From Rhodocyclales bacterium (GTDB lineage: Bacteria; Pseudomonadota; Gammaproteobacteria; Burkholderiales; Rhodocyclaceae), in the NCBI GenBank assembly GCA_028292485.1, contig JAQGMG010000054.1:18633-82632 (forward strand): DNA of 64,000 nucleotides, given 5' to 3'. Made by a program: the position numbers and the translations under genes. Under the pieces are notes generated by a model. The model saw only the letters and a program-made list of their open reading frames with translations, ran no database searches and had not been told where the DNA came from. How positions within the stretch are numbered: the first letter of the stretch is position 1; every line of letters begins with the position of its first letter. Shown here in pieces: positions 882 to 57,638 of this stretch.

Positions 882-945
882 GAGCGAGATATTTCAGAGC
901 GCGCGGAGAAGCTGGTTAAGGTAGTCCTGAGCCAAGCGCGACTTG

Positions 946-2589: not shown

Positions 2590-3166
2590 CCCGTTGTTCG
2601 AGTACCCATATGGTCGCGGGGGGAATATTGGTGAACACGACCTGCTTCTTTGCCCACGAAAGCCATGGACCCGGGCTTACGAATGGCACTTTGCCAAAAT
2701 AACTGTATTGGATAAATCGAAATCCCGGGTGCCTTGTACTCAAGACGCCGATGGCATCTCTTATCGCGTTGAGCTCACTATAGGGCAGCGAGCGCAAAGG
2801 CAACGAGGAGACGATGGTCAGTGGCTCCTCGGTGGGGAAGCGAAGCTTGTCGAGGCCGGAGGCACAGTCTGCCGTGATATTCAGGGAGGGATAGCGCTTG
2901 ATCAGCAGGTCTACAAGGCGGGCGGACTTCTCGATCACGATGAGATCGGACAATTGACTGCGGATCGCCATGAGGGACTTGGTGATGGCGCCGGTTCCTG
3001 CGCCCAGTTCCACAACGCAACCTGGCCGGCGTACCAGAACTTCTCTGGCGATTGCACTACCAAGCGGTTTTCCCGACGGGATGATGGATCCTATGCAACG
3101 CGGATCGCGCAACAGCTCCGCCCAGAACGTGAGCAACAATTTCAAATCTCGGGTTCCATGAGGCAT
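2564..3166 (-). CDS. class I SAM-dependent methyltransferase (phospholipid N-methyltransferase-like)
   Basis: 200-aa ORF with SAM-binding motif VVELGAGTGAIT. Its 3' end overlaps the start of the ept-like gene by 8-26 nt. Confidence 0.7.
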   Translation of the reverse strand: MPHGTRDLKLLLTFWAELLRDPRCIGSIIPSGKPLGSAIAREVLVRRPGCVVELGAGTGAITKSLMAIRSQLSDLIVIEKSARLVDLLIKRYPSLNITADCASGLDKLRFPTEEPLTIVSSLPLRSLPYSELNAIRDAIGVLSTRHPGFRFIQYSYFGKVPFVSPGPWLSWAKKQVVFTNIPPATIWVLEQRDEGNVSHE

Positions 3167-3441
3167 CTCACCACGCGAAGCATGGGAGAACGTTTTGAGT
3201 ACAGCGACTCATCGTACTGCTGGCATCGATTTTCGTCTTCGCGCGCGGACGGATGGTGCCGCGGCCTTACTCAACAAGCACAGCGCAATTATCCTGCATG
3301 TTCAATGCAGTCGGGCCAGTGAAGATGACCTGATGCAAGAAATATCAGAAGCAGCAAGAAAAGGCTTCCTTGGCTCACCACCAGTTGTTGTGCGCCAAGG
3401 CAGTAGCACCGCCGTTCATCCCGCTGCCGGACTTGCCGTTA

Positions 3442-3876
3442 CTAGTGCAAAGGCGACAGGCTGGCGTTCAGGCCGTCGAGGATTTTTGCCCAGCCGGCGT
3501 GCGTGCGTTCGACGTAGTCCGGCGGCACGCCTTCGTGAGTGAGACCCAGTATGCAGCCCGTCCCCTGCGCTTCAATGTCGATGGCGACGCGCGTCTTTTC
3601 CGGGCTGTACTGAGGCACGGCGAAATCGAAGACGAGCCGATGTGGCCGGTCGATGGTGACGTACTCGCCGACGTGCTCGACGTCTTCGCCATTACGCCGG
3701 TCCACGAATCGGAATGTGCCGCCCACGCGGGCGTCGATCTCCACTCGCACCATCTCGCCCTTGTCGGTGGCGAATAGCCACTTGCCGGCCTGGTCAGGAT
3801 TGAGCCACGCGTCGAAAACCTTGTCTGCAGGCACTTTGAAACTGTGGGTGACACGGACGTTCTTTGTATCGGTCAT
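3442..3876 (-). CDS. SRPBCC / Aha1-domain protein
   Basis: Internal ATG at 3876 with an AAGGA RBS. The 144-aa product MTDTKNVRVTHSFKVPADKVFDAWLNPD... is typical of the AHSA1/SRPBCC family. The upstream 102 codons of the track ORF look non-coding. Confidence 0.8.
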   Translation of the reverse strand: MTDTKNVRVTHSFKVPADKVFDAWLNPDQAGKWLFATDKGEMVRVEIDARVGGTFRFVDRRNGEDVEHVGEYVTIDRPHRLVFDFAVPQYSPEKTRVAIDIEAQGTGCILGLTHEGVPPDYVERTHAGWAKILDGLNASLSPLH

Positions 3877-4292
3877 GGTCTCATCCTTTGCAAGGCGGGC
3901 ATTGGCGTATCGCTGGGCCGCATCACTGTCGTACGCCAGATCCAGTAGATCAGGGGAATCTGCAGGGGCAGGCGCAGCAGCAGGAGCGCCTGGGCCGCGA
4001 TTGAATGGTCTGCCGCATGGGCATTGAGGAACATTTGTACATTGGCTGGAAATACGGCCAAAGACAAGACAATCAACCCGTAGCCGGCCGCGCGTTGCAG
4101 GCGTGCTTGCAACACGCCGAGACCGCCGGCAATCTCGCACACGCCACTGATCCATACCATCAGCAACGGCTGGGGAATCCACGGCGGAATGATATGTGCA
4201 TAGGTGCGCGGGAAGATGAAATGCAGCGTGCCGCCGACAACGAAGAACGTCGCAAGCAGTTTCTCGGAAAGGGTGTGCCGGGTTTGTTGCAT
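3873..4292 (-). CDS. DoxX-like membrane protein
   Basis: ATG at 4292 is preceded by GGAGA. Product is a 4-TM protein with a ...PANVQMF... segment. Its stop overlaps the SRPBCC start (ATGA at 3873-3876). Confidence 0.7.
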   Translation of the reverse strand: MQQTRHTLSEKLLATFFVVGGTLHFIFPRTYAHIIPPWIPQPLLMVWISGVCEIAGGLGVLQARLQRAAGYGLIVLSLAVFPANVQMFLNAHAADHSIAAQALLLLRLPLQIPLIYWIWRTTVMRPSDTPMPALQRMRP

Positions 4293-4326
4293 GCCGTCTC
4301 CTTGCATTGAGATCAGACCCACACGC

Positions 4327-4366
4327 TCGTCATTCCCGCGAGTTTTGGAAGACTCGCGGGAATGAC
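4327..4366. repeat. single-hairpin variant of the CGTCATTCCCGCG...CGCGGGAATGACG repeat family
   Basis: Inverted repeat of cgtcattcccgcgagt (4327-4342) with actcgcgggaatgacg (4351-4366). It shares its ends with the longer copies at 6516, 27042 and 31262. Confidence 0.6.
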
Positions 4367-4490
4367 GGCGGTGTCTTGATTCATTCTGTGCAGCAAATCC
4401 GGTACCTGCCTCCCGGTACTGCCGCAGTCCCGCCGCTATATGACTGAATACGTGGCGACTGCGAGGCCGGATTCAAAGAGGCGGGCTTGA

Positions 4491-5753
4491 CTATCGGGGC
4501 GGGAAAAACAGGTAAGCCATGCAGATCGCGGCAATGGCGCCGACCAGGTCGGCAATCAGGCTGCAGGTAATGGTGTGGCGCGTCTTGCGCACGCCGATTG
4601 CGCCGAAATACACGGCGACGACGTAGAAAGTCGTGTCCGTCGCGCCTTGCAGCAGGCAGCTCAAGCGGCCGGCAAAACTGTCGGCGCCGAAGGTTTTCAT
4701 CGTGTCGATCATCATGCCGCGCGCGCCGCTGCCGGACAGCGGCTTCATGAACGCCGTCGGCAACGCGGGCACGATGTCGGCGGGCGCGCCCATTGCGATC
4801 AGCGCGCTGGCCAGGCCGTGCATGAGGAAATCCATCGCGCCGCTGGCGCGGAACACGGCTATGCCGACGAGTATCGCCACCAGGTAGGGCACCACCATGA
4901 TCGCCGTGTTGAAGCCCTCACGCGCACCTTCGATGAAAGTCTCGAAGGCATTCACCTTGCGTCTTACCGCGAGCGCCATGAACGCCACGATCAGGCCGAG
5001 CAGTATCAGCCCGCTGATCAATGCACTGGTTGCACCTAGCTGCTGCGCAGACAAGCGCGCGAAGTACCACAGCGTGCCAAGCACGGCCATGGTCAGGCCG
5101 AGCAGCCAGGCAATGACAACGGGATGGCGCAGCTGGATTTTCTGGAAGAAACTCACCGAGATCAGCCCGGCCATGGTGCTGAAAAATGTTGCCAGCAGAA
5201 TCGGCAGAAATACGTCCGAGGGGTTCGCCGCACCGAGCTGCGCCCGGTAGGTCATGATGCTTACCGGCAGCAAGGTCAGGCTGCTCGAATGCAGCACGAC
5301 GAACAGGATCTGCGCGTCGGAGGCACGCTCCTTGTCGCCACCGTTACGTTCCGCATCCTGCTCGTTGAGTTCCTGCAATTCCTTCATCGCCTTGATGCCC
5401 ATTGGCGTCGCGGCGTTATCGAGGCCAAGCAGATTCGCGCTGATGTTCATCAGCATCGAGCCCGTCGCAGGGTGCCCGGCGGGGATGCCTGGAAACAGGC
5501 GCCGGAACAAGGGATCGACCAGTCGTCCGAGCATCTGCACCGCGCCGGCACGCTCGCCGATCTTCATCACGCCGAGCCAGAAACAGAGAATGCCGGTCAG
5601 GCCGAGACCGATCTCGAACGCCGTCTTCGACATCTCGAACGAGTCCTGCACGACCTTGCTGAAGACGCTGGCATCGCCGAGCACCAGCCACTGGAAAAGG
5701 CAGGCGACGAAGGCGCCGAAGAAGAAGAACAGCCAGATGAAGTTGAGGATCAT
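4491..5753 (-). CDS. nucleoside-recognition-domain membrane protein (SpmA/SpmB-like fusion)
   Basis: 420-aa polytopic ORF with the segment SANLLGLDNAATPMGIKAMKELQELN, typical of SpmA-type proteins. Confidence 0.8.
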   Translation of the reverse strand: MILNFIWLFFFFGAFVACLFQWLVLGDASVFSKVVQDSFEMSKTAFEIGLGLTGILCFWLGVMKIGERAGAVQMLGRLVDPLFRRLFPGIPAGHPATGSMLMNISANLLGLDNAATPMGIKAMKELQELNEQDAERNGGDKERASDAQILFVVLHSSSLTLLPVSIMTYRAQLGAANPSDVFLPILLATFFSTMAGLISVSFFQKIQLRHPVVIAWLLGLTMAVLGTLWYFARLSAQQLGATSALISGLILLGLIVAFMALAVRRKVNAFETFIEGAREGFNTAIMVVPYLVAILVGIAVFRASGAMDFLMHGLASALIAMGAPADIVPALPTAFMKPLSGSGARGMMIDTMKTFGADSFAGRLSCLLQGATDTTFYVVAVYFGAIGVRKTRHTITCSLIADLVGAIAAICMAYLFFPPR

Positions 5754-46526: not shown

Positions 46527-46828
46527 GTAGGTTGGATGAGCGCAGCGTAATCCGACGTTTGGAATCGCAAAACAACAAAGGCGGATACGTACCTTTGCCC
46601 CAACGTCGGATGACGCCTGCGGCTCATCCAACCTACGAAACCGCGCCCGGTCCTGGCGTCTTACGCTGTCGATCCAGCTCCGGCCACGTGTGGATGCTGA
46701 TATGCAATTTGCGTAACAAGAGCTTCGTAGGTTGGGGTGAGCGCAGCGATGCCCAACGCCTCACGTTGATTTGGCTCCTACCTGTGCATGGACCGATGTT
46801 GGGCATCGCTGCGCTCACTCCAACCTAC
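46527..46828. repeat. cluster of four REP hairpins (two inverted doublets)
   Basis: GTAGGTTGG...hairpins lie at 46527-46557 and 46727-46758. Their inverted partners lie at 46604-46636 and 46798-46828. The last REP lies inside the 3' end of the AdoMet decarboxylase ORF. Confidence 0.8.
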
Positions 46829-47188
46829 ATCCTGTCTTGCGGATGCCGTTGCGCGATCAAGCTTCCTGACGCGATGCGATTCCGCTGCTAAGGCTTTGGC
46901 GATGTGCGCTGTTGCTGTTTCCGGCTGCGCCTGACCACACATGAAAATGTCTACAGCCGCAAAGCCATGTTCCGGCCAGGTGTGGATGCTGATATGCGAT
47001 TCGCGCAATAGCAGCACGCCGGTGACGCCCATGCCGGGACCGAAATGATGAAAGTGCGCATGGATCGGCGTGGCGCCGGCCAGACGTGCCGCTTCGCGCA
47101 GGACAATCTCGATCTGTGCCGTGTCGCCGAGCAGGCCGGGCGATACGCCGTCGAGATCGAGCAGCAGGTGCTGGCCAAGAATACTCAT
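46778..47188 (-). CDS. pyruvoyl-dependent S-adenosylmethionine decarboxylase proenzyme (SpeD/SpeH-like)
   Basis: ATG at 47188. LLLRESHISIHTWPEHG is the processing and active-site motif. The C-terminal ~15 codons are encoded by a REP. Confidence 0.8.
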   Translation of the reverse strand: MSILGQHLLLDLDGVSPGLLGDTAQIEIVLREAARLAGATPIHAHFHHFGPGMGVTGVLLLRESHISIHTWPEHGFAAVDIFMCGQAQPETATAHIAKALAAESHRVRKLDRATASARQDVGWSERSDAQHRSMHR

Positions 47189-47337
47189 TTGTGGAACGAC
47201 CCACCGCCAGAATAACCGCTGCCGTAACTCGACCCACCCCAACTGCGATAGCTGCTGCCGCCTCTCGATCCACCATGGATGGTGGTCGTAGCAATGGTGA
47301 TGACGATTGCGTAGATGATGTAGATAAAGCGCCACAT
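47185..47337 (-). CDS. 50-aa micro-protein: one TM helix plus a Gly/Ser/Tyr-rich tail
   Basis: Product is MWRFIYIIYAIVITIATTTIHGGSRGGSSYRSWGGSSYGSGYSGGGSFHK. Its start overlaps the upstream stop (TGATG) and its stop overlaps the downstream start (ATGA). Confidence 0.5.
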   Translation of the reverse strand: MWRFIYIIYAIVITIATTTIHGGSRGGSSYRSWGGSSYGSGYSGGGSFHK

Positions 47338-48833
47338 CAGTCGTCGTCTCCCGAGCTGCTGTCTGCAAATTTGAAGATCGGAAACCACAACGCAACAAGG
47401 CCGAAGGCCGGAATTTCGATGCCGTCAAAACCCTGCATGAAAAGGATGGGCAGGTTCAACACGACAATGATGGCGGTGAATATCCACGCGACTTTACGCA
47501 ACTGGCTGCCAGTGTCGCCCGTACTGGCAAGGGCGGCCGCACTTTGTTTGGGCAAGGCTGCCGCCTGCGCTGCCTTGCCGAACCAGCCAAGCACATCGCG
47601 CGCTGCAACGCGCTTGGCAAGACTCCAGTTCAGCTCGCTCGCGGTGCGCTCTGCGGTGAGCGTCATGTTTCCCTGCTTGTAATCGGCGATGCTGGTGCGG
47701 TCGCCGATATGCACACGCCAGTTGAAGGCGCCAGCGGCCCAGACCACTTCCGCGCCGTAGTCGTACAGCTTGTTGAAGACCTGCCCGCTGAGTCGCAGCT
47801 GGCCGCTGCCTGCCGCCTCTGGCCACTCGTCCTGCACGGTGACAAGATCCCAGCCCTCCATGCTCTCGACGATCCACTGAAAGCCCTTTTGCGGGTTGTA
47901 GAGCAGATACTCGACCCAGGTCGAGGACTCTTCACCTGTCTCGCGGCATTCCATGAGACCGATCAATGTCCACGCTGCGCCGCCAATTTTGGCGATGTCG
48001 CCCAGTGCCAGCGTGGTCGTGCGTTGATCCAGCTCTTCATTCTTGGCCAGCACTTCCACCTGCCCGGCGCGCGCAGCGACTTCCGCATGGCAGGTCTGGC
48101 AGACGAGGTGCTGGGCGACGCCCGGCCGGTACGCAATCGACGCACCGCAGTTCGGACATTCGAGGTTGGCCGTGCTGCCGCGCAGCTTGCCCGCGCTCTG
48201 CTGGATCTGCGTTTCGTCGCGCAGCAGCTGGCAGGCCAGCGTTTCCAGCGTGACCGCCTTGCCGACGTAGATGACCGGCGTGGCGCCATCCGAATAATCC
48301 AGCGTGACGAAGCGTTGACCGTTGCGGTAGTCCGCAACCTTCGCTTCCCAGCCCTCGCCGACCTTGAACGGCAGCTCGCCCTGACCACCCGTGCAACGTG
48401 CCGTGCGCACATCTGCGGCGATGTAGCCAACACCGTCAAAAGCCAGGCGCCCACCGGGCTGGATGCGCTCGAAGAGCGGTACCTCTTGTGGCTTGGTGGC
48501 CGACTCGACTGTCAGCGTGTACTTGCCCGAAGCATCCGACAGCCAGCACGCCGCGCCATCGTCGAACAGCGCATACCATTCGTTCCAGTAGCCATCGGCG
48601 TATTCGAGTTGAATACGTCCGACGACACCGAAGCGCTTGCCCTCGAACATGCCGCTGGTATTGATCTGGATCGGCGAATAATCCTCCAGCACAGCCGACA
48701 TCTTGCCGATGTCGCGCACCGAGTCTGCGTCGCGCAACAGCGTGCTCTGGCAATAGCTGCACACCGCCATGACCGAGGCGGCCGAGCGAAAGCTGACTTG
48801 TGCTCCGCAGCTAGGGCAGGCGACTTGATACAT
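47337..48833 (-). CDS. double zinc-ribbon / double DUF4178-like membrane-anchored protein
   Basis: Zinc-ribbon-like pairs CPSCG...CSYCQS and CPNCG...CQTCH each precede a DUF4178-like module (GRIQLEYADGYWNEWYALF and WVEYLLYNPQKGFQWIV). A C-terminal TM segment and an acidic tail follow. Confidence 0.75.
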   Translation of the reverse strand: MYQVACPSCGAQVSFRSAASVMAVCSYCQSTLLRDADSVRDIGKMSAVLEDYSPIQINTSGMFEGKRFGVVGRIQLEYADGYWNEWYALFDDGAACWLSDASGKYTLTVESATKPQEVPLFERIQPGGRLAFDGVGYIAADVRTARCTGGQGELPFKVGEGWEAKVADYRNGQRFVTLDYSDGATPVIYVGKAVTLETLACQLLRDETQIQQSAGKLRGSTANLECPNCGASIAYRPGVAQHLVCQTCHAEVAARAGQVEVLAKNEELDQRTTTLALGDIAKIGGAAWTLIGLMECRETGEESSTWVEYLLYNPQKGFQWIVESMEGWDLVTVQDEWPEAAGSGQLRLSGQVFNKLYDYGAEVVWAAGAFNWRVHIGDRTSIADYKQGNMTLTAERTASELNWSLAKRVAARDVLGWFGKAAQAAALPKQSAAALASTGDTGSQLRKVAWIFTAIIVVLNLPILFMQGFDGIEIPAFGLVALWFPIFKFADSSSGDDD

Positions 48834-48866
48834 TCGTTAGCTCAGGCTAATTCTCGAGAGTGCGGC

Positions 48867-48898
48867 GTAGGGTGGGTTAGCGCAGCGTAACCCACCGG
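48867..48898. repeat. single REP hairpin inside the operon
   Basis: gtagggtgggttagcgcagcgtaacccaccgg lies in the 104-nt gap between the SPFH and DUF4178 genes. Confidence 0.7.
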
Positions 48899-48937
48899 TC
48901 CAAAACTTCCGGGCGCTTTGCGCCCGCCCAATCAATA

Positions 48938-49948
48938 TCACCCGATCATCTTCTTGAGTATCTCCGCCTTCGCCGTGTCGTAATCGGCTTGGGCGATGAG
49001 CCCCTTGTCCAGCATGCCCTTGAGCTTTTCAAGGCGCACTTCCGGCGCGTCACCCGCTGGCGCAGCAGCGGCCGCAGAAGCTGGATTCATGCTGGTACGC
49101 ATCGCATCTGCCATTACTTGCCCGACGCCGACACCTGCTGCGAGACCCGCGCCCAGGCCCGCAACGCCGCCTTCGTTCTGCGCCGCCAGCGGGATGCTGT
49201 TGGCAACCTGGTACTGGGTGTACTTGCCGAGGTCGCCCATCATGCCCATCGAGATGCGTGTGTCGATGGCCTTCTGCAGCTCTTCCGGCAACGAGATGTT
49301 TTCGACGGCGTAGTTGTCGAGCGCGAGGCCGTACTGATCGAACACGGGCGTCATGTGTTCTTTCATCTTCTGCGACAGCAGCGCCTGGTTGCCGGCCATG
49401 TCGAGGAAAGGCAACTCGGCGCTGCCCAATGTCGATGTCATCGTCGACACCACAAGGTTACGCAGCTGCTCTTCGAGCTGGTCACGCGTGTAGATCTCGC
49501 GCGTGCCGCTGATCTCGGTGTAGAACTTCTTCGGGTCGCTCAGCTTGTAGGAATACATGCCGAAGGCGCGCAGGCGCACCATGCCGAAGTCCTTGTCACG
49601 AATGGTGATCGGTTGCGGCGTGCCCCACTTGCGGCCGAGCTGGATGCGCGTGCTGAAGAAGTACAGGTCGGACTTGAAGGGCGACTCGAAGAGCTTGTCC
49701 CAGTTCTTCAGGTAGGTGAGCACTGGCAGCGTCTGTGTAGTGAGCTTGTACATGCCGGGGCCGAACACGTCGGCAACCTTGCCCTCGTTCACGAACACCG
49801 CCATCTGCGAATCGCGCACGGTGAGGCTGGCGCCGTTCTGTATTTCCATGCCGTCCATGGGGTGGCGCCAGGCGAGCACGCCTTCGCTGTCTTCGGTCCA
49901 TTGCAGGACGTCGATAAACTGTTTCTTGATGAAATCGCCCAGACCCAT
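48938..49948 (-). CDS. SPFH/band-7 protein (COG4260, YdjI-like) with C-terminal SHOCT-like helix
   Basis: ATG at 49948 follows AAGGAGA. Contains MGLGDFIKKQFIDVLQW...VRDSQMAVFVNEGK...ENISLPEE and the tail LEKLKGMLDKGLIAQADYDTAKAEILKK. Confidence 0.85.
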   Translation of the reverse strand: MGLGDFIKKQFIDVLQWTEDSEGVLAWRHPMDGMEIQNGASLTVRDSQMAVFVNEGKVADVFGPGMYKLTTQTLPVLTYLKNWDKLFESPFKSDLYFFSTRIQLGRKWGTPQPITIRDKDFGMVRLRAFGMYSYKLSDPKKFYTEISGTREIYTRDQLEEQLRNLVVSTMTSTLGSAELPFLDMAGNQALLSQKMKEHMTPVFDQYGLALDNYAVENISLPEELQKAIDTRISMGMMGDLGKYTQYQVANSIPLAAQNEGGVAGLGAGLAAGVGVGQVMADAMRTSMNPASAAAAAPAGDAPEVRLEKLKGMLDKGLIAQADYDTAKAEILKKMIG

Positions 49949-49995
49949 GATGGCTCTCCTTACCGAAAATTTAGAAAATGCGTTACGACAATGCT

Positions 49996-50388
49996 TTACG
50001 AAAGGGCGGCGGCGTTGATGGTGCCGACGACCAGTGACACGACGCCCATGAGCCCACCCATGGCGACGTTGTTGTTCTCCAGTGCTGCGTTGAGACTCGG
50101 CAGCAGGCGCGCGACAAATGCATAGGCGCACACCTGCACGGCGGCACTGCAGGCTGCCCAGAACAGGAACATGAGGAAGGTATCGTTATGCAGGATGCTC
50201 GATGCGACCGTCAGCGCAAAGCCGAGTGTCGCGCCGCTGAGCGATAGCGCCGCCGCCGCGCCGCCGTTGTGAATCAGATGCAGTTCGCGAAAGGGCGTGA
50301 CATGCAGATAGACGGCGACGAACGCGCCGACCACGGCCAGCCCGGCGAGTAGATGAATCAGGTATGCGTAGAGTTGTTGTAATACCAT
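49996..50388 (-). CDS. DUF350 membrane protein (YjfL-like)
   Basis: ATG at 50388 follows AGGAGA. VTPFRELHLIHNGGAAAALSLSGATLGF parallels the E. coli YjfL segment ITPHNEWQLIKNNNTAASLAFSGTLLGY. The upstream 320 codons of the track ORF were rejected. Confidence 0.8.
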   Translation of the reverse strand: MVLQQLYAYLIHLLAGLAVVGAFVAVYLHVTPFRELHLIHNGGAAAALSLSGATLGFALTVASSILHNDTFLMFLFWAACSAAVQVCAYAFVARLLPSLNAALENNNVAMGGLMGVVSLVVGTINAAALS

Positions 50389-50529
50389 CAGCCGTCTCCT
50401 GTGACCTAGCTCATCAAATGCCGTCGCAGCGTAACAAGCGGGCATGACGGGTGCAAGCCCGTTCGGACAAAATGTACCAACGGACAAACCTTCCGCCAGA
50501 TTCTTATCTTTGCGAAATTCAGCTCCTGC

Positions 50530-52041
50530 ATGCGTGATCGCGTCCTGATTCTCTCCGTCTTCGTCGTCGCCTCCTGCGGCCTGGCCTATGAGCTTATTGC
50601 CGGCGCGCTGGCCAGCTACCTGCTCGGCGATACGGTGTTGCAATTCTCGTCCATCATCGGCTGCTACCTTTTCGCGATGGGCGTGGGTTCGCATCTGTCG
50701 CGCTACGTGAAGGACGAGGACGCACTGGCGCGTTTCATCGATGTAGAGCTGCTGGTGGGCATTGTCGGCGGGCTCTCGGCAACGATCCTGTTCTCGATCT
50801 TTGCGTGGGCTTCTACCCCGTTCCGTACGGTGCTGTACGCGCTGGTGTTCCTGATCGGCGTGCTGGTCGGTATGGAAATCCCGCTTGTCATGCGCGTGCT
50901 GTACGGGCGCAAGGCCGAGCTGCGCGAGATGGTCAGCCGCGTGCTGACTTTTGATTATCTCGGCGCGCTGGCAGTGTCCTTGCTGTTTCCGCTGGTGCTC
51001 GCTCCGCGTCTCGGCATGTCGCGCACGGCGCTGGTCTTCGGTCTGCTCAACGCGGGTGTTGCGCTGTTCACGGCGCAGGTATTCGGCAAGGAGCTTCACG
51101 GCAAGCGCGGCATTCGGCTGCGTGGCACAGCCGTGGCGGTCGTGCTCATTGCCGGACTGGCCTTCTCTTCGCAGCTCACGCACTGGGCCGAGCAAAGCGT
51201 GTTCGGCGACCAGATCATTCATGCCGAGACGACACCGTATCAGCGCATGGTGGTGACGCGCTGGCAGGACGATCTGCGTCTGTATCTCAACGGCAATCTG
51301 CAGTTCTCGACACGCGACGAGCATCGCTATCACGAGGCGCTGGTGCATCCGGCGATGCAGTCGCTACCCGGTGCGCGCAGCGTGCTGGTACTTGGCGGCG
51401 GCGATGGTCTCGCCGTGCGTGAGTTGCTCAAGTACCCGAAGCTTGAACACATCACGCTGGTAGATCTGGACCCGGCGATGACGAAGCTGTTCTCGACATC
51501 GGAAACGCTGACCGCCATCAACCAGCACTCACTGACCAACCCGCGCGTCAAGGTCATCAATGCCGATGCAGGGCAGTGGCTGGAGACAGATACCGGTTCC
51601 TACGATGCCATCATCATCGACCTGCCGGACCCGTCGAACTTCGCGCTGGGCAAGCTCTATTCGGTGCCGATGTACCGGCTGGTGAGCAAGCATCTCGCCG
51701 AGCATGGCTACGTCGTCGTGCAATCCACTTCGCCCTATTTCGCGCCGCATGCTTTCTGGTGCGTGGTGGCGACCTTGAAGGAGGCCGGCTTCTACACCTG
51801 GCCCTATCACGCCAATGTGCCTTCGTTCGGCGAGTGGGGATACGTGCTGGCCGGCAAGCACGATAGCTTCACGCAGCCCGATCACTACGACGTGCCGCTG
51901 CGATTTCTGGATGCATCGAGCACGCGCGAGATGTTTCACTTTCCGTCCGACATGGTGGCACCGGAGGTCGAGCCCAACCGGCTGAATAACCAGTCGCTGG
52001 TGCACTACTTCGAGCAGGACTGGCACCGGGTGATTCGCTAG
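50530..52041 (+). CDS. polyamine aminopropyltransferase (spermidine-synthase-like) fused to an N-terminal multi-TM domain
   Basis: About 7 TM helices are followed by VLVLGGGDGLAVRELLKY...ITLVDLDP...IIIDLPDP, a spermidine synthase fold. Confidence 0.85.
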   Translation: MRDRVLILSVFVVASCGLAYELIAGALASYLLGDTVLQFSSIIGCYLFAMGVGSHLSRYVKDEDALARFIDVELLVGIVGGLSATILFSIFAWASTPFRTVLYALVFLIGVLVGMEIPLVMRVLYGRKAELREMVSRVLTFDYLGALAVSLLFPLVLAPRLGMSRTALVFGLLNAGVALFTAQVFGKELHGKRGIRLRGTAVAVVLIAGLAFSSQLTHWAEQSVFGDQIIHAETTPYQRMVVTRWQDDLRLYLNGNLQFSTRDEHRYHEALVHPAMQSLPGARSVLVLGGGDGLAVRELLKYPKLEHITLVDLDPAMTKLFSTSETLTAINQHSLTNPRVKVINADAGQWLETDTGSYDAIIIDLPDPSNFALGKLYSVPMYRLVSKHLAEHGYVVVQSTSPYFAPHAFWCVVATLKEAGFYTWPYHANVPSFGEWGYVLAGKHDSFTQPDHYDVPLRFLDASSTREMFHFPSDMVAPEVEPNRLNNQSLVHYFEQDWHRVIR

Positions 52042-53705
52042 TGCAGGGCCCGCACCGCCCTTTTTTCTCCCGGCGCCAGTTCCTGGCTGCGAGCGCAACG
52101 GGTTTGTTGTCCGGTTGTGGTCGATTGCCCTGGCAGGCGCCACCAGTGCGCATCCTCATGCCGGGCATGGCGGAAGGACATATCTTGCGTGATGGGCTGC
52201 GCGATGCGGCGAAGCTGCCGTCACCATCCGGTGAGCTCGAATGCGATGTCGCCATTTTCGGCAGCGGCGTAGCAGGCATGACGGCGGCGTGGCGACTGGC
52301 AAAGGCCGGGCGTCGCAACATCCTGGTGATCGCGGGTCCGGAGCCCGACGGCAATGCGGCGGGCGCCAGCATGGCGGGGCAAGCCTGTCCAAGCGGCGCG
52401 CACTACCTGCCGTTGCCGTCGATGGAATCAAGGCATGTGCGCGAGATGCTTGCCGATGTCGGCGTCATCATCAGCGATCCATTCGGGCATCGTCCCGAGT
52501 TCGACGAGAGGATTCTGGTTCATGCGCAGCAGGAGCGCTTGCTGCGCGCCGGCAAATGGCACGAGGACCTGTTGCCTGATGAAGCGAGCACGACGCAGGA
52601 GCGCAGCGAGCATCAACGCTTCCTGCGCTACGTCGAACAGCTCAAGACGGCGACTGGCAACGATGGCAAGCGCGCCTTTGCCATACCGATTGCGCTGTCC
52701 TCTCAGGATGCGCAGTGGCGCGCGCTCGATCGACTCAACTTCCGCGACTGGCTGACGCGCGAGGGCTATCGCTCGGCGCCGCTGCACTGGTATGCCAACT
52801 ACGCTTGTCGCGACGATTATGGCACGAGCTATGAACACACCTCTGCCTACGCCGGCCTGCACTACTTCGCGAGTCGTGCGGGTGAGGCCCGCAATGCCGA
52901 GCCGGGCGCGGTGCTGACCTGGCCGGATGGCTTGCAGGGAATGATGCGTGCATTGCGGAGTAAGATCGGCTTTGGCGCACATCTCGATAACAGCACCGCG
53001 CCCCGCCAGATGACGGGCTTTGCCGCCAGCATTCAGATCAGGAACAAGGCTGTCGACGCTTTGGTCGTGCAGCCTGCATCCGGTACTGCTTCGCTGCGCA
53101 CCCTGCGCGTACGCGCGCGTCATGCAATCTGCGCCATGCCACTGCACGTTGCAGCGCACGTGGTCGAAGACATGCGTGGCTACGGCTTCGACCCTGCCAC
53201 GCATTTGCCGCAGAGTGCACCATGGATGATCGCCAACTTCCTCATGCGCCGTTTCCCGGAAGAGCGTGCTGCGGCGCAGCTGGCGTGGGACAACGTGATC
53301 TACGAAGGCAAGGGCCTTGGCTACGTGGTGGCCACGCACCAGCTGATCCGCGTGGCCAAGCCAGAACACGCGGTTTTCACCGCCTACAACGCGCTCAGCG
53401 ATCGCTCGCCGCAGGACTCGCGCCGCTGGCTGGAGACTGCATCGCCGGCGCAGCTGCTTGAACGCGCCGCTGGCGATATGCATCTCGCCTACGAGCAATT
53501 GTGGCCCTATGTCGAGCGCGTGGACATCACGCTGCGCGGCCACGCCATGGCCAGCCCGGCACCGGGTTATCTGAACAACAAGGGGTTGTTGGCGCTACGC
53601 GAAGTCGACGGCCCGCTGCAATTTGCGCACAGCGATATGTCTGGCTATTCGGTGTTTGAAGAGGCGGCCTGGTGGGGCGAGATGGCGGCGCGCCGTCTGC
53701 TGTGA
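52041..53705 (+). CDS. FAD-dependent (amine-oxidase-like) oxidoreductase, predicted Tat-exported lipoprotein
   Basis: The GTG start shares a base with the upstream TAG. Twin-arginine motif SRRQFL, lipobox LLSGC and dinucleotide motif DVAIFGSGVAGMTAAWRL are present. Confidence 0.75.
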   Translation: MQGPHRPFFSRRQFLAASATGLLSGCGRLPWQAPPVRILMPGMAEGHILRDGLRDAAKLPSPSGELECDVAIFGSGVAGMTAAWRLAKAGRRNILVIAGPEPDGNAAGASMAGQACPSGAHYLPLPSMESRHVREMLADVGVIISDPFGHRPEFDERILVHAQQERLLRAGKWHEDLLPDEASTTQERSEHQRFLRYVEQLKTATGNDGKRAFAIPIALSSQDAQWRALDRLNFRDWLTREGYRSAPLHWYANYACRDDYGTSYEHTSAYAGLHYFASRAGEARNAEPGAVLTWPDGLQGMMRALRSKIGFGAHLDNSTAPRQMTGFAASIQIRNKAVDALVVQPASGTASLRTLRVRARHAICAMPLHVAAHVVEDMRGYGFDPATHLPQSAPWMIANFLMRRFPEERAAAQLAWDNVIYEGKGLGYVVATHQLIRVAKPEHAVFTAYNALSDRSPQDSRRWLETASPAQLLERAAGDMHLAYEQLWPYVERVDITLRGHAMASPAPGYLNNKGLLALREVDGPLQFAHSDMSGYSVFEEAAWWGEMAARRLL

Positions 53706-53733: not shown

Positions 53734-54273
53734 TCAATCTTTGACGCATACCGTCGGCAGATCGTCGCGCATCAGCCAGCCGTAACCGCGCGGACAACGC
53801 ACGCGGCGTTCGCGGCGAATGACTATGGCACCTGTGCTCTCCGGCGTACTCATCTGGCAATTGCCATTGGCGCCGCTGACAAACCCCGCGTAGGAAATGC
53901 GTGGCGCGTCTTCCCTGGCCGTCCAGCTCAGAGTCTTGCCGCTCTCCGTGTAGGGCGCGTCTGCAACGGCATAGCTGAGGCCGCAAGGGTAGGTCTTGGT
54001 CAGCGCCGCAATCGCGTCGTTAACCGCAGCTGTTTCCGAGCCCCTTGGCGCACCGGACTTGTTGTTGAGCACAAAGCGCCAGATGTCCCAGCTGCCGATC
54101 TCCGGCTCGCTGCATGTGCTTGAAGGCAGGCCCGCGTTTTCGCACAGCCCGCTTGCTGCGTAGGCCTGGCTGAGCATGCAGCAGGCCGATGCAATCAGCA
54201 CTCTCAGCACAAACGTCTGCACGATCGACCTCATTCTGATAATGACATGCGCTTGCCTCCATGGCTTTTGCAT
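53734..54273 (-). CDS. secreted cysteine-containing hypothetical protein
   Basis: ATG at 54273 follows GAGGT, with an alternative start at 54234. A signal peptide ...VLRVLIASACCMLSQAYA is present, and the mature part has 8 Cys. Confidence 0.55.
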   Translation of the reverse strand: MQKPWRQAHVIIRMRSIVQTFVLRVLIASACCMLSQAYAASGLCENAGLPSSTCSEPEIGSWDIWRFVLNNKSGAPRGSETAAVNDAIAALTKTYPCGLSYAVADAPYTESGKTLSWTAREDAPRISYAGFVSGANGNCQMSTPESTGAIVIRRERRVRCPRGYGWLMRDDLPTVCVKD

Positions 54274-54301: not shown

Positions 54302-55021
54302 TCAGCGCCAGCCTCCGGTTACAAAACTCATTGTCTCCGTTTCGCGTCGCCACACCACCTCCTGGCGTGTGGTGGTCAGCCACCAGGATTGTGTGAGCGG
54401 CTCGGGCTTGTGACGGGCAAAGCCTTTGGGCGTGAGCAGGGCGGCACACCAGCTTGGCTGCGGATCGCGGACGGACTGATAGACGATGGCTTGCAGCCTG
54501 GCTTCGCGCGCGGCCCGGGCAATCGCCTGCGTGGCGCTGTAATCGCGTGGAGCTATCCACAAGGCTGCTTGTGCGTTGAGGGGCGGCTCGCGCAGATCGA
54601 TGGCGCTGGCATCGACCCTGGCACGAAACGCCGTGTGGAGTACCGGGCCGACCTGCTGCAGGGCAGGGCTGTCGAGCAGGAAGCGCCAACGCCAGTAGCC
54701 CAGTTCGGCTGCGGCTGTACGGACGTGAGGTGCGCCATAGAACACACCGAGATCATTGCTGCCGCGAAAGCGTGACCCCGAGGGATACGGCGGATAGCGA
54801 AAAGGACTGGCGAGCAGGTAGTCCAGCTGCGTGGTGTTGATGGGCTGCGGCGGTTTGCCCTGCTCCAGCAGGATCTCCAGCACGTCCTGCTCGGCAGCGC
54901 TGTCGACCAGTTTCATGGTGCTGGCGACGTGTTGCGACTCGACCATGCGCCATAGCGCGGCGCGTAGAGGGCGGGCCAGCGTGGCCAGTTGCCCGGCATC
55001 GAACAAGTCTTCCGAACTCAA
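54302..55021 (-). CDS. RES-domain toxin (RES-Xre type II TA system)
   Basis: Contains WRMVESQH...STMKLVD, then the RES signature residues in SRFRGSNDLGVFYGA...AAAELGYW...IVYQSVRD. Only a TTG start is available at 55021, 3 nt after the antitoxin stop. Confidence 0.8.
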   Translation of the reverse strand: MSSEDLFDAGQLATLARPLRAALWRMVESQHVASTMKLVDSAAEQDVLEILLEQGKPPQPINTTQLDYLLASPFRYPPYPSGSRFRGSNDLGVFYGAPHVRTAAAELGYWRWRFLLDSPALQQVGPVLHTAFRARVDASAIDLREPPLNAQAALWIAPRDYSATQAIARAAREARLQAIVYQSVRDPQPSWCAALLTPKGFARHKPEPLTQSWWLTTTRQEVVWRRETETMSFVTGGWR

Positions 55022-55024
55022 GGA

Positions 55025-55411
55025 TCAGACCCGGGCACGCGATGCGTCGAGGTACTGCACGACACGCACCAGCCCTTCGGTATGCTGGATCAATTCAACC
55101 GGCATACCTGCCAGGGCGAGATTCTCGCTGTTGAGCCAGCTGCGGGCGGCGTCCTGTGTGCCGACGATGGAATCCAGCGAGCGGAACAGCCGCACCAGTA
55201 ACACGGCGAAATCCCATTCCTTGCTGTCACGTTGCAGACGATAGCGGCCGGCGACGAGGCGCGAGGCGGTTGCAGTGCTGACGCCCAGCACCTTGGCGAG
55301 CCGCGCCTGGGACAATCCAAGTTGCTCGGCAGTACGTACCAACGCTTTGGAAAGCACGGTAGCCGGGTCTGTTTCGGCATTGCTGGCGGTGCTGATACTG
55401 GCGTCAAGCAT
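55025..55411 (-). CDS. Xre-like antitoxin with DUF2384-type toxin-binding domain
   Basis: ATG at 55411 follows GGAGAAG. An HTH (LGLSQARLAKVLGVSTATASR) is followed by ARSWLNSENLALAGMPVELI, typical of DUF2384. Confidence 0.75.
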   Translation of the reverse strand: MLDASISTASNAETDPATVLSKALVRTAEQLGLSQARLAKVLGVSTATASRLVAGRYRLQRDSKEWDFAVLLVRLFRSLDSIVGTQDAARSWLNSENLALAGMPVELIQHTEGLVRVVQYLDASRARV

Positions 55412-55490
55412 GGCTTCTCCGATCTTTCCCAAGAAATATAGAACATATATTCGTTCTGTGGAAGGATAAATTCGCGGTTTTGACGATTAT

Positions 55491-55998: not shown

Positions 55999-56970
55999 TC
56001 AGGCAGTTCCGAAGAAGTCGCGATCGATGCCGTGCTTCTTCAGGAGTTTGCCAAGGGCGCGGCGCTCCTTGCCGGCCAGCAACGCAGCGCGCGTGACGTT
56101 GCCACCTGTCTCGCGCAACAGGTGCGAAAGATACTGGCGTTCCCAGGCACTCATCGCTTCATGGCGGGCATCGTTGAAGAGAACCGGCCCTGTTTTTGTC
56201 CGTTCGCCGCGCGCGTGCCAGTTCTCGGGCGCCAGGCGAAGCTCGGCATCCTGACCGAGCAAGGTCTGGCGATGCACCAGGTTATCCAGCTCGCGCACAT
56301 TGCCTGGCCAGTGATGCGTGTCCAGCCATGCCAGGCTGTCGGTATCGAAAGGGCGGACCTTCATCTTGTAGCGCGCCGCATGACGCGCCGCGAAATAGTC
56401 GGCCAGCAGGCGCGCGTCGCCAATGCGCTCCCTCAGCGGCGGCATCTCGACGGCCAATACGTCGAGGCGGAAAGCCAGGTCGGCGCGGAAGCTACCGCGC
56501 GCAACCATTTCCTGCATGCGCGGGCTGGCCGCAGCGACCACGCGCACGTCGCCGGAGAGTTCGCCGGAAGCGCCAAGCGGGCGGAAGGTCTGGTCCTGCA
56601 GAAAGCGCAGCAATGCGGCCTGTGCGCGCATCGGCAATGAATCGACCTCGTCGAGAAACAGGGTGCCGCCACGCGCTGCTTCGACCAGGCCAACGCGGCT
56701 CTGGCGCGCATCGGTGAAAGCGCCGCGTTCGTGGCCGAATAATTCGCTTTCGATCAGCGTATCGGGCAGTGCGCCGCAATTGACCGGCACGAATGGAGAA
56801 GCGGCACGTGCGCTCAGATAATGAATGGCGCGCGCGGCCAGCTCCTTGCCAGTTCCCGTTTCGCCGGTAAGCAGGACAGGCGCCTCAAAGCGCGCCAGGC
56901 GGGTAATGGTTTCGAGCACTCGCACGAAAACAGGCGAGGCACCAAGCATGTTGGGTACGACTGCGGCCAT
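55999..56970 (-). CDS. sigma54-dependent transcriptional activator lacking an N-terminal sensory domain (PspF-like architecture)
   Basis: The AAA+ domain starts near residue 10 with Walker A LLTGETGTGKE. ESELFGHERGAFTDA and a C-terminal Fis-type HTH are present. Total length is 323 aa. Confidence 0.9.
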   Translation of the reverse strand: MAAVVPNMLGASPVFVRVLETITRLARFEAPVLLTGETGTGKELAARAIHYLSARAASPFVPVNCGALPDTLIESELFGHERGAFTDARQSRVGLVEAARGGTLFLDEVDSLPMRAQAALLRFLQDQTFRPLGASGELSGDVRVVAAASPRMQEMVARGSFRADLAFRLDVLAVEMPPLRERIGDARLLADYFAARHAARYKMKVRPFDTDSLAWLDTHHWPGNVRELDNLVHRQTLLGQDAELRLAPENWHARGERTKTGPVLFNDARHEAMSAWERQYLSHLLRETGGNVTRAALLAGKERRALGKLLKKHGIDRDFFGTA

Positions 56971-57188: not shown

Positions 57189-57638
57189 TTACTTTGCTGC
57201 TTCTATGAGACCAGACTCTGCTACACCAGCCTTGCCCGTGGCGTCATCAACAAGATTGAGCTTGCTGCCAGGCGACCACATGCCCATCTTGACCTCTTGC
57301 CAGACGAAGTAGTTCTTGCCCGCTACTACATTGATATCCAGCGTCTTGTCTGAGTCTTCCTGCGACATGATTGTATGTTTGCCCGGCGCGAGCTGGACAA
57401 AAAAGTAGCTTTTCGATGCAGTGCTGCCGATCAACTTGCCGTCTACGGAAACCTGAAGCTTTACAGCTGCGCCCATCGTCTCGTTACGATAAATGTAAAC
57501 ATTCGCTTTATCAGGAGAAGTGGCAAAGCTCTTTGCCTTTGTATCTTGTTCAGCAGGAGCCATTGCTACTGAGGCACAGCCTGAAGCAGCAATGACAATT
57601 GCGCTGAAGAGGCTGAGAAGTTTGATATTTTTAAACAT
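57189..57638 (-). CDS. DUF2846-like lipoprotein
   Basis: ATG follows AAGGGAA. Lipobox IAASGC is present, and ANVYIYRNETMGAAVKLQVSVDGKLIG is typical of DUF2846. GC is lower than the flanks. Confidence 0.7.
   Translation of the reverse strand: MFKNIKLLSLFSAIVIAASGCASVAMAPAEQDTKAKSFATSPDKANVYIYRNETMGAAVKLQVSVDGKLIGSTASKSYFFVQLAPGKHTIMSQEDSDKTLDINVVAGKNYFVWQEVKMGMWSPGSKLNLVDDATGKAGVAESGLIEAAK

Follow-up and report, generated by a model that had tools for sequence, protein, structure and literature searches.

A conserved PspA-free envelope module that combines a membrane-fused aminopropyltransferase with SPFH, DUF350 and DUF4178 proteins

A 64,000-nucleotide stretch of DNA from a Rhodocyclales bacterium (GenBank assembly GCA_028292485.1, contig JAQGMG010000054.1, positions 18,633 to 82,632; hereafter the window) carries seven genes at positions 46778 to 53705 that are arranged as two divergent operons. 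Comparison with other genomes establishes that these seven genes are one conserved functional unit. We tentatively interpret this unit as a PspA-free member of a group of envelope modules that are built on a membrane-embedded aminopropyltransferase, DUF350 and DUF4178, and that would carry out aminopropylation on the envelope side of the membrane. A probability of roughly 0.45 is assigned to this model, most of which is carried by the single-unit and envelope-side parts of the proposal. A module of this kind has already been published in a few sentences, without a function, in section 19 of Ravi et al. 2024 (mSystems, PMC11237479). Three points are new to the current analysis: a conserved micro-protein that ends in His-Lys, a predicted periplasmic orientation of the transferase, and the amine-oxidase fold of a flavoprotein whose twin-arginine motif is invariant. 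The genes are listed below with the evidence for each assignment.

DUF350 (YjfL family) integral membrane protein, 130 amino acids; 49996-50388, minus strand; first gene of the minus-strand operon
SPFH protein of the Band_7_1 (COG4260, YdjI-like) type, 336 amino acids; 48938-49948, minus strand; profile search
Double-DUF4178 protein, 498 amino acids; 47337-48833, minus strand; profile search
Micro-protein reading frame, 50 amino acids; 47185-47337, minus strand; table of open reading frames (ORFs) and homologous ORFs
speD-like class 1b pyruvoyl S-adenosylmethionine (AdoMet) decarboxylase, 136 amino acids; 46778-47188, minus strand; PF02675 and TIGR03330
Enzyme of the polyamine aminopropyltransferase family fused to transmembrane helices, 503 amino acids; 50530-52041, plus strand; NF002956 and PF01564
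Flavin amine-oxidase-fold protein, 554 amino acids, GTG start; 52041-53705, plus strand; fold, and PF01593 in homologues

All seven ORFs appear in the ORF table at the coordinates given by the first-pass annotation, which had been made by a model from the sequence. The family assignments were upheld by profile searches, in the case of the flavoprotein by way of its homologues and its fold. A direct reading of the sequence also confirmed the gene overlaps. A TGATG at 47335-47339 joins the DUF4178 gene and the micro-ORF, and an ATGA at 47185-47188 places the ATG of speD on the stop codon of the micro-ORF, which is thus translationally coupled on both sides. Base 52041 is common to the TAG stop of the transferase gene and the GTG start of the flavoprotein gene, and the two operons are separated by the expected divergent spacer of 141 nucleotides (50389-50529). 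The SPFH protein starts with MGLGDF, and AAGGAG lies ahead of its start codon.

Conservation was examined by scanning a one-genome-per-species collection with the double-DUF4178 protein as the query. At least 504 stretches encode a relative of this protein, and the nearest cultured relative in the scan is Uliginosibacterium silvisoli. The locus counts given here rest on the best 80 of these stretches, each taken with 10-kb flanks. They derive from Rhodocyclaceae, Zoogloea, Chitinibacteraceae and other Neisseriales, Oxalobacteraceae, Achromobacter, and some gammaproteobacterial metagenome-assembled genomes (MAGs). The 80 loci were searched with the window proteins, and those that run into a contig end were scored as cannot tell.

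SPFH gene: present in 79 of 80 loci (60-95% identity), absent from 1 despite enough sequence, contig end in 0
DUF350 gene: present in 76 of 80, absent from 1 despite enough sequence, contig end in 3
Membrane-fused aminopropyltransferase gene: present in 76 of 80, absent from 1 despite enough sequence, contig end in 3
speD: present in 69 of 80, absent from 10 despite enough sequence, contig end in 1
Flavoprotein gene: present in 66 of 80, absent from 3 despite enough sequence, contig end in 11

All six large genes are held by 57 loci, and the gene order and strands of the window recur in every one of them (57/57), which is far beyond chance. All-against-all clustering of the flanking ORFs in these 80 loci yielded no further conserved family, and the module is thus embedded in unrelated surroundings. 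In Beta- and Gammaproteobacteria the two divergent operons occur together, and the module is also found in Cupriavidus metallidurans and on the megaplasmid of Ralstonia solanacearum. In more distant lineages the genes are rearranged. On pSA1 of Novosphingobium resinovorum (Alphaproteobacteria) a single strand encodes SPFH, the two-copy DUF4178 protein, the micro-protein, a half-size DUF350, the membrane-fused transferase, the Tat-flavoprotein (Tat, twin-arginine translocation) and SpeD. In Gemmatirosa kalamazoonensis (Gemmatimonadota) the order, again on a single strand, is SPFH, speD, two-copy DUF4178, micro-ORF, half-size DUF350, transferase and flavoprotein. Tritonibacter has a reduced module of DUF4178, micro-ORF, DUF350 and transferase. 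The single-strand versions in Novosphingobium and Gemmatirosa are the strongest evidence for one unit. Because the genes are rearranged yet retained together in distant lineages, chance adjacency is excluded.

Two further arrangements were noted in this group of genomes. In R. solanacearum OE1-1, the transferase gene and the DUF350 operon are set apart by an inserted five-gene ATP-binding cassette (ABC) transporter of the branched-chain-amino-acid type (positions 506-5101 of the megaplasmid locus L082), which might, for example, take up an amine substrate. Plasmid MCP49-600 of Alteromonas mediterranea carries a different variant of the family (locus L085, 8944-15602), in which the order is membrane-fused transferase, speD, a hypothetical gene, a TelA-like 'toxic anion resistance protein', a single DUF4178, another hypothetical gene, and an eight-helix DUF350.

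The simplest competing explanation is that two unrelated operons happen to lie back to back, one of them an ordinary speD/speE pathway with a catabolic oxidase and the other a membrane-stress operon. The halves are indeed transcribed divergently in the window, speD is located at the far end of the scaffold operon, and the families of each half also occur alone in other genomes. However, the same pairing and orientation are seen in all 57 complete loci from many genera whose flanks are otherwise unrelated, and two other lineages have the halves joined in a single operon that runs in one direction. Moreover, speD resides in the 'scaffold' operon and its partner transferase in the other, which means that neither half is a complete pathway. 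Ralstonia keeps both halves even though an ABC transporter separates them. We consider the existence of two independent operons to be extremely improbable. The conclusion that the seven genes are a single unit follows from the 57 identical loci, the lack of any other conserved flank, and the single-strand versions in Novosphingobium and Gemmatirosa. The first-pass annotation had proposed one envelope-associated system that joins aminopropyl or polyamine enzymes to an SPFH/DUF350/DUF4178 scaffold, and had suggested gene-neighborhood analysis as a check. This idea gains support from the shared order and strands of the complete loci, and from operons that travel together and are fused in two lineages. 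A role in anti-phage defense was also considered, since SPFH/SHOCT proteins occur in some defense islands. PADLOC gave no relevant match, returning only a generic methyltransferase fold for the transferase and a weak FAD motif for the flavoprotein, and this role was rejected.

The transferase is matched by NF002956 at 700.3 bits (cut-off 472) over residues 3-501 and by PF01564 (Spermine_synth) at 119.7 bits, whereas the model for fusions of the major facilitator superfamily (MFS) type gives 39.1 bits against a cut-off of 40. Its AlphaFold2 model (predicted local distance difference test score, pLDDT, 87.3) has seven long helices followed by the catalytic fold, which occupies approximately residues 226-503. 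The catalytic motifs are intact: YQ, DE..YHE, GGGDG, DLD and DxPDP are invariant in 25 homologues. Among solved enzymes, the nearest are thermospermine synthase (6bq2) and the Thermus triamine/agmatine aminopropyltransferase (1uir), and the model superposes on them at 2.0-2.6 Å. Both of these enzymes take substrates that are longer than putrescine. A fold search with the model returned soluble aminopropyltransferases only and nothing informative for the seven-helix domain.

Charged residues are distributed very unevenly between the two sides of the seven-helix domain. The window protein has 15 Lys and Arg residues in its N-terminus and loops 2, 4 and 6, compared with only 1 in loops 1, 3 and 5. 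Among 25 homologues the mean values are 12.2 versus 1.0, the rich side never falling below 9 and the poor side never exceeding 1. The counts are 12 and 1 in the Gemmatirosa transferase and 9 and 0 in that of Tritonibacter. The positive-inside rule would place the N-terminus in the cytoplasm, and since the number of modeled helices is odd, the catalytic domain is predicted to face the periplasm.

A second component is also expected to lie outside the cytoplasm. The flavoprotein begins with a sequence that reads SRRQFL...LLSGC, as would a Tat-exported lipoprotein. The export signal is conserved, with R11, R12 and F14 (RRxF) invariant in 25 homologues, and the lipobox cysteine is present in most of them but not all. 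The Tat motif assigned by the first-pass annotation is borne out, and its lipobox is present in the window protein without being universal in the family. The motif recurs in distant lineages, in Novosphingobium with the canonical lipobox LLSGC and in Gemmatirosa with the lipobox-like GLSC. In the public annotation of the Rhodocyclales MAG from which the window comes, this protein is a 515-amino-acid 'amine oxidase' that starts 39 codons after the GTG at 52041 (52041-52157). The deposited start is probably wrong because the twin-arginine/lipobox signal, which is conserved in homologues, would be lost.

By sequence, the flavoprotein matches only FAD/NAD-binding models (NAD_binding_8, 35.5 bits), and the two glycines G74 and G76 of its N-terminal GxGxxG motif are invariant. 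No solved structure was matched by sequence, and PF01593 is not matched by the window protein but is matched by many homologues. The amine-oxidase identity is based on these homologues and on the predicted fold (AlphaFold2 model, pLDDT 86.8). The closest folds are those of bacterial monoamine and putrescine oxidases and of the Pseudomonas spermidine dehydrogenase SpdH (Foldseek probability 1.00 for 8p84, 2yg3 and 7d9j), with E values of ∼1e-19 to 1e-18 and TM-scores of 0.55-0.70 when normalized to target length. The two-domain FAD amine-oxidase fold is shared with 2yg3 (Rhodococcus putrescine oxidase), 8p84 (bacterial monoamine oxidase) and 7d9g (P. aeruginosa SpdH), but identity to these proteins is 13-17%, and the window protein differs from them in having a Tat signal and a lipobox. 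No sign of a haem-binding domain such as that of SpdH was seen, although no search aimed at one was made.

The third new point concerns the micro-protein, whose N-terminal anchor consists of MWR and ∼18 hydrophobic residues. The anchor is followed by a tail rich in Gly, Ser, Tyr and Trp that ends in His-Lys. A homologous micro-ORF follows the DUF4178 gene in 79 of the 79 loci with sequence there, and all 80 copies of the protein end in His-Lys. The tails are 26-44 residues long (33% Gly, 30% Ser, 5.6% Trp) and vary in length with the frame always kept, and 74 of the 80 copies have no Lys in the tail other than the terminal one. The micro-protein is a conserved component of the module. The transmembrane segment and the Gly/Ser/Tyr-rich peptide had been recognized in the first-pass annotation, which gave too little weight to what proves to be among the most tightly linked components of the module.

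The window copy is deposited as MDB5802637.1. Copies are publicly annotated as 'hypothetical protein', are named 'glycine-rich protein' or 'lipoprotein' in UniRef, and gave no Pfam or NCBIfam match. A phmmer search of 1.84 billion representative proteins found no fusions of the micro-protein, returning four matches of 50-54 amino acids with a low-complexity query that limits sensitivity. In more distant copies the last three residues are THK in Novosphingobium, HGK in Gemmatirosa and RVK in Tritonibacter. The Novosphingobium protein has a canonical lipoprotein signal (...VMAGC), and ∼9 betaproteobacterial copies have a lipobox-like ...TSC or ...S[LS]SC. A lipid anchor and a signal-anchor helix would be topologically equivalent only if the tail is periplasmic.

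These features can be assembled into a working model for the module. Cytoplasmic SpeD, judging from its strong family membership, would make decarboxylated AdoMet. As the predicted topology suggests, the seven-helix domain would then pass or present this donor to the periplasm-facing catalytic domain. The aminopropyl group might be placed on an envelope-side amine rather than on the usual cytoplasmic putrescine pool, and the best candidate for the acceptor would be the invariant C-terminal lysine of the membrane-anchored micro-protein. The flavin amine oxidase, which is predicted to be Tat-exported and is co-translated with the transferase, could oxidize, trim or recycle the product in the periplasm. 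By analogy with the recruitment of YdjI by YdjG/YdjH in Bacillus subtilis, the SPFH/SHOCT protein may be held at the cytoplasmic face by DUF350 and the zinc-ribbon/DUF4178 hairpin protein, and this scaffold may organize or gate the complex under membrane stress.

Several observations weigh against envelope-side aminopropylation. The positive-inside rule is the sole ground for the orientation of the transferase, and a catalytic domain in the periplasm would require decarboxylated AdoMet beyond the cytoplasm, for which no precedent is known to us. Ten of the 80 loci lack speD beside the module and three lack the oxidase. The closest partner of the micro-ORF is the DUF4178 gene and not the enzymes; the micro-ORF stays with that gene in the 10 speD-less loci and in L038, a locus from which all other module genes are gone, and no His-Lys micro-ORF was detected in the single-DUF4178 variant of Alteromonas. 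The charges that flank the anchor of the micro-protein are uninformative (Lys+Arg 1.16 vs 1.21), and the tail of the Gemmatirosa copy is Arg-rich, which would favor a cytoplasmic tail. Finally, the fusions tested by Li et al. 2019, which are discussed below, may belong to the MFS-fused family.

A more conventional explanation is that the transferase makes spermidine, thermospermine or norspermidine in the cytoplasm, the seven helices export it as proposed for PA4773/PA4774 of Pseudomonas aeruginosa, and the periplasmic oxidase degrades or edits it. The SPFH/DUF350/DUF4178 proteins would then be a stress scaffold and the micro-protein a small subunit. Decarboxylated AdoMet is made in the cytoplasm and, to our knowledge, this is where every characterized aminopropyltransferase works. 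The curated NCBI model matched at 700 bits is named 'polyamine aminopropyltransferase', all catalytic motifs of polyamine-forming enzymes are retained, and the best fold matches of the flavoprotein use free putrescine or spermidine. The N-terminal domain is termed 'transporter-like' in the section of Ravi et al. on these operons (PMC11237479). However, if the catalytic domain were cytoplasmic, every homologue examined would have 9-15 Lys/Arg residues in loops on the periplasmic side and 0-1 in loops on the cytoplasmic side, which given seven helices is a strong breach of the positive-inside rule. This explanation would also leave the invariant His-Lys micro-protein unaccounted for, and related fusions made no spermidine or spermine according to a statement in PMC12803844 that cites Li et al. 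2019. On balance, synthesis in the cytoplasm followed by export appears rather unlikely.

Another scenario shares the topology evidence with the envelope-side model but has a different acceptor, such as a phosphatidylethanolamine head group or an amine of peptidoglycan or lipopolysaccharide, whose aminopropylation would alter surface charge. The micro-protein would not be the substrate but a wall-linked tether or a structural partner of the DUF4178 protein. Braun's lipoprotein is linked to the wall through its C-terminal Lys, and the anchor, flexible tail of 26-44 residues and terminal Lys of the micro-protein are tether-like. The linkage of the micro-ORF to DUF4178 rather than to the enzymes, as in L038 and the speD-less loci, also fits this explanation. 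In contrast, the best 80 loci show no conserved L,D-transpeptidase or lipid-modifying gene next to the module, and we know of no aminopropylated lipid or wall component in these bacteria. In favor of such an acceptor, Ravi et al. suggest 'aminopropylation of other substrates' and observe that coupling to surface lipoproteins recurs (PMC11237479). A lipid or wall acceptor seems unlikely to us.

The most specific version of the envelope-side model is that the outward-facing catalytic domain aminopropylates the C-terminal lysine of the micro-protein, possibly repeatedly, with the donor arriving by way of the seven helices and the oxidase processing the adduct. This proposal is improbable as it stands. 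If it is true, aminopropyl transfer would for the first time be placed outside the cytoplasm, and the lysine-linked polyamine modification known from diatom silaffins would have a bacterial counterpart. The micro-protein would also be the long-sought non-putrescine acceptor of membrane-fused aminopropyltransferases. Envelope-side aminopropylation in general, if it occurs, would be a new type of envelope chemistry, with possible consequences for resistance to cationic antimicrobials and for PspA-free handling of membrane stress. At least ∼500 bacterial species genomes are concerned, and the hosts include Cupriavidus metallidurans, the plant pathogen Ralstonia solanacearum, Burkholderia and Achromobacter. 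The His-Lys micro-protein, the charge pattern of the transferase and the twin-arginine motif of the oxidase make the acceptor question directly testable in Cupriavidus or Ralstonia.

Membrane-fused aminopropyltransferases have been encountered before. Li et al. 2019 reportedly tied class 1b AdoMet decarboxylases to such fusions and to DUF350, and are said to have concluded that the acceptor is probably not putrescine. As far as their clusters are described, these share with the window the combination of class 1b decarboxylase, membrane-fused aminopropyltransferase and DUF350; they differ in that their fusions are described as MFS-type, whereas the window transferase belongs to NF002956/PRK03612. 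A passage from the Michael laboratory that cites this work states that the related bacterial fusions are not involved in spermidine or spermine synthesis (PMC12803844). The first-pass annotation had proposed a system that 'makes or edits a polyamine at the membrane'. The envelope system stands, but in view of this passage (PMC12803844) a polyamine product is uncertain.

In section 19 of Ravi et al. (PMC11237479), two sets of operons resemble the window. One set contains a spermidine-synthase-like domain fused to a '7TM transporter-like domain' together with DUF350 and DUF4178. As in the window, the aminopropyltransferase is fused to seven transmembrane helices, and DUF4178 is predicted there to be intracellular. 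The other set is an operon variant that lacks PspA and encodes a band-7/SHOCT protein, DUF350, AdoMet decarboxylase and polyamine oxidase. In this variant, as in the window, the PspA-CesT/Tir pair gives way to a band-7 protein whose C-terminal part carries a hydrophobic segment and SHOCT. The window therefore merges group 2 of that section (7TM transferase, DUF4178) with the variant of group 3 (band-7/SHOCT, decarboxylase, oxidase). It contains no potassium channel, DUF1190 or DUF2491, and it lacks the ATP-grasp glutathionylspermidine-synthetase-like ligase of the parent group 3. Such a ligase is neither encoded in or beside the window module nor conserved in the best 80 loci. Section 19 and a term search of the paper gave no mention of the His-Lys micro-protein, the duplicated zinc-ribbon/DUF4178 architecture or the orientation of the transferase. 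A search of the literature on mycobacterial Rv2597-Rv2601 gave nothing informative for the module.

Three systems named in the first-pass annotation offer partial parallels. The P. aeruginosa pair PA4773-PA4774 (speD2-speE2), which we take to lie directly upstream of pmrAB, resembles the window in that a second class 1b AdoMet decarboxylase adjoins an atypical aminopropyltransferase. It is associated with pmrAB, and control by PmrAB/PhoPQ was taken as a hallmark of that system, whereas no such regulator lies beside the window module, and no two-component system is conserved beside the module in the best 80 loci. The Pseudomonas locus also lacks SPFH, DUF350, DUF4178, the micro-protein and the Tat oxidase. 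The pair has been linked to envelope protection (PMC11107197, citing Johnson et al. 2012), and the surface-polyamine background given for it is accurate (PMC11107197). However, PA4774 is a soluble thermospermine synthase of 349 amino acids with no transmembrane domain (PMC11107197), whereas the window enzyme is fused to seven transmembrane helices. PA4774 is therefore not a close analogue of the window transferase.

The placement of B. subtilis YdjI in pspA-ydjGHI agrees with the literature (PMC8581546). YdjI (SamI) is an SPFH protein of the cytosol, and the membrane proteins YdjG and YdjH bring it to the membrane (PMC8581546; bioRxiv 10.64898/2026.02.06.704340). In both pspA-ydjGHI (samGHI) and the window, the gene for an SPFH protein adjoins that for a zinc-ribbon membrane protein. 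The partner carries DUF4178 modules in the window, in contrast to the NTF2-like domain in YdjG, and the B. subtilis operon has no polyamine-type enzymes. The window module and its flanks lack PspA, which is an ESCRT-III homologue, and the TPM-domain protein YdjH of that operon, which means that the window is like the YdjI/SamI system by analogy at most and is not a member of it. The position of Escherichia coli YjfL in yjfIJKLMC likewise agrees with the published description of that operon in the relevant section of Ravi et al. (PMC11237479). There, as in the window, DUF350 (YjfL) is found beside a membrane-stress protein and a polyamine-related enzyme (PMC11237479). As described in the same section, the E. 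coli operon has the PspA-family protein YjfJ, the CesT/Tir-like YjfI, the ATP-grasp protein YjfC, DUF1190 and DUF2491. Missing from it are an aminopropyltransferase, a decarboxylase, an SPFH protein, DUF4178 and an oxidase.

The remaining proteins of the scaffold operon are assigned by profile. The DUF350 protein matches PF03994 over the full model length at 92.7 bits and has four helices, as seen from four hydropathy peaks. This family is present in 76 of the 77 assessable loci, and the Novosphingobium and Gemmatirosa proteins are two-helix half versions. The SPFH protein matches PF13421 (Band_7_1) at 256.6 bits and PF01145 at 66.7 bits, and B. subtilis YdjI is presumably of the same Band_7_1 type. 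A hydrophobic segment rich in Gly and Ala lies at approximately residues 261-280. The SPFH call of the first-pass annotation holds, but the C-terminal SHOCT-like helix pair scores 25.4 bits, which is just below the Pfam threshold of 27 bits. The SPFH protein on a Gemmatirosa plasmid (L083, 7554-8615) has a C-terminal zinc ribbon in place of SHOCT. This matches the description of the B. subtilis band-7 protein of the YdjI type (PMC11237479).

The DUF4178 protein consists of two units, each with a CxxC...CxxC zinc ribbon and a DUF4178 domain, followed by a two-helix membrane hairpin at approximately residues 445-490 (hydropathy peaks at 448-466 and 472-490) and an acidic tail. PF13785 is matched by two stretches at 97.9 bits. 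The eight ribbon cysteines (C6, C9, C25, C28, C226, C229, C245 and C248) are invariant in 19 homologues, and 1908 relatives were found in the protein database. A LysW-like zinc-ribbon match is weak (E 0.0076) and indicates a resemblance of the ribbon only, and no solved structure was matched by sequence. Among the papers searched, DUF4178 is mentioned only by Ravi et al. 2024. In Gemmatirosa and Novosphingobium, ∼150-170 residues are inserted between the two transmembrane helices of the protein, and this insert is predicted to lie outside the cytoplasm.

Neither the module nor its neighborhood encodes PspA, in agreement with the first-pass annotation, and the seven proteins and the flanking ORFs scanned did not match PspA or CesT models. 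A hidden PspA partner was sought near a PspF-like activator at 55999-56970. This gene is followed by a small lipoprotein gene and a homoserine-acetyltransferase-like ORF, which was identified by eye, and no pspA is present there.

The speD product scores 122.1 bits with PF02675 and 127.9 bits with TIGR03330, for which the cut-off is 75.65. Its self-cleavage and active-site segment is LLLRESHISIHTWPE, in which the Glu-Ser self-cleavage motif is read as RESHISIHTWPE. We take the motif of class 1b decarboxylases, with its Glu-Ser self-cleavage site, to be ESH(I/L)S(I/V)HT(W/Y)PE. The Pfam domain stops at residue 112 of 136. The C-terminal tail beyond it is probably not native because one arm of a palindrome resembling repetitive extragenic palindromic (REP) elements, at 46798-46828, lies inside the 3′ end of the ORF. 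REP-like inverted repeats are found after speD at 46523-46541/46622-46640 and at 46727-46757/46798-46828, with the core GTAGGTTGG(A/G)(T/G)GAGC. Between these two palindrome pairs, ∼55 nucleotides downstream of the speD stop codon, is a 45-nucleotide copy (46679-46723, 84% identical) of the active-site segment at 46971-47015 that would encode LLLRKLHISIHTWPE. This copy looks like a relic of a REP-associated rearrangement. A third, degenerate REP-like copy with hairpins is present at 48867-48881 in the spacer between the SPFH and DUF4178 genes. Hairpin folding of this 104-nucleotide spacer is not exceptional (z = -1.28).

The divergent spacer contains one candidate promoter, which is proposed by inference from conservation in related spacers.

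Candidate sigma-70-type promoter of the DUF350 operon (TTGCAC, 17-nucleotide spacer, TACGCT); 50428-50456, minus strand

Its −10 element ends 39 nucleotides upstream of the DUF350 start codon. A CTTG[CT]TAnnnT element was found in 10 of 50 extracted spacers, and in 9 of these 10 it lies 33-53 nucleotides before the DUF350 start with a TTGnnn hexamer 17 nucleotides upstream. A strict consensus promoter scan did not report the candidate, and consensus promoter and terminator matches are no more common than in shuffled sequence.

Beyond the flavoprotein gene, the following minus-strand genes were observed in the window.

Cys-rich ORF of 179 amino acids with a hydrophobic N-terminal stretch, converging on the flavoprotein gene; 53734-54273, minus strand
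RES-domain toxin, just past the module; 54302-55021, minus strand
Xre/MbcA/ParS-type antitoxin, just past the module; 55025-55432, minus strand
PspF-like sigma-54 activator with an AAA+ domain and HTH_8 and no receiver domain; 55999-56970, minus strand
Small lipoprotein-like protein, adjoining the PspF-like activator; 57189-57638, minus strand

The Cys-rich ORF matches no Pfam model, and its place beside the module is not conserved elsewhere. The toxin-antitoxin pair is not conserved beside the module in other genomes either. The PspF-like activator does not belong to the module and is not conserved next to it in the best 80 loci.

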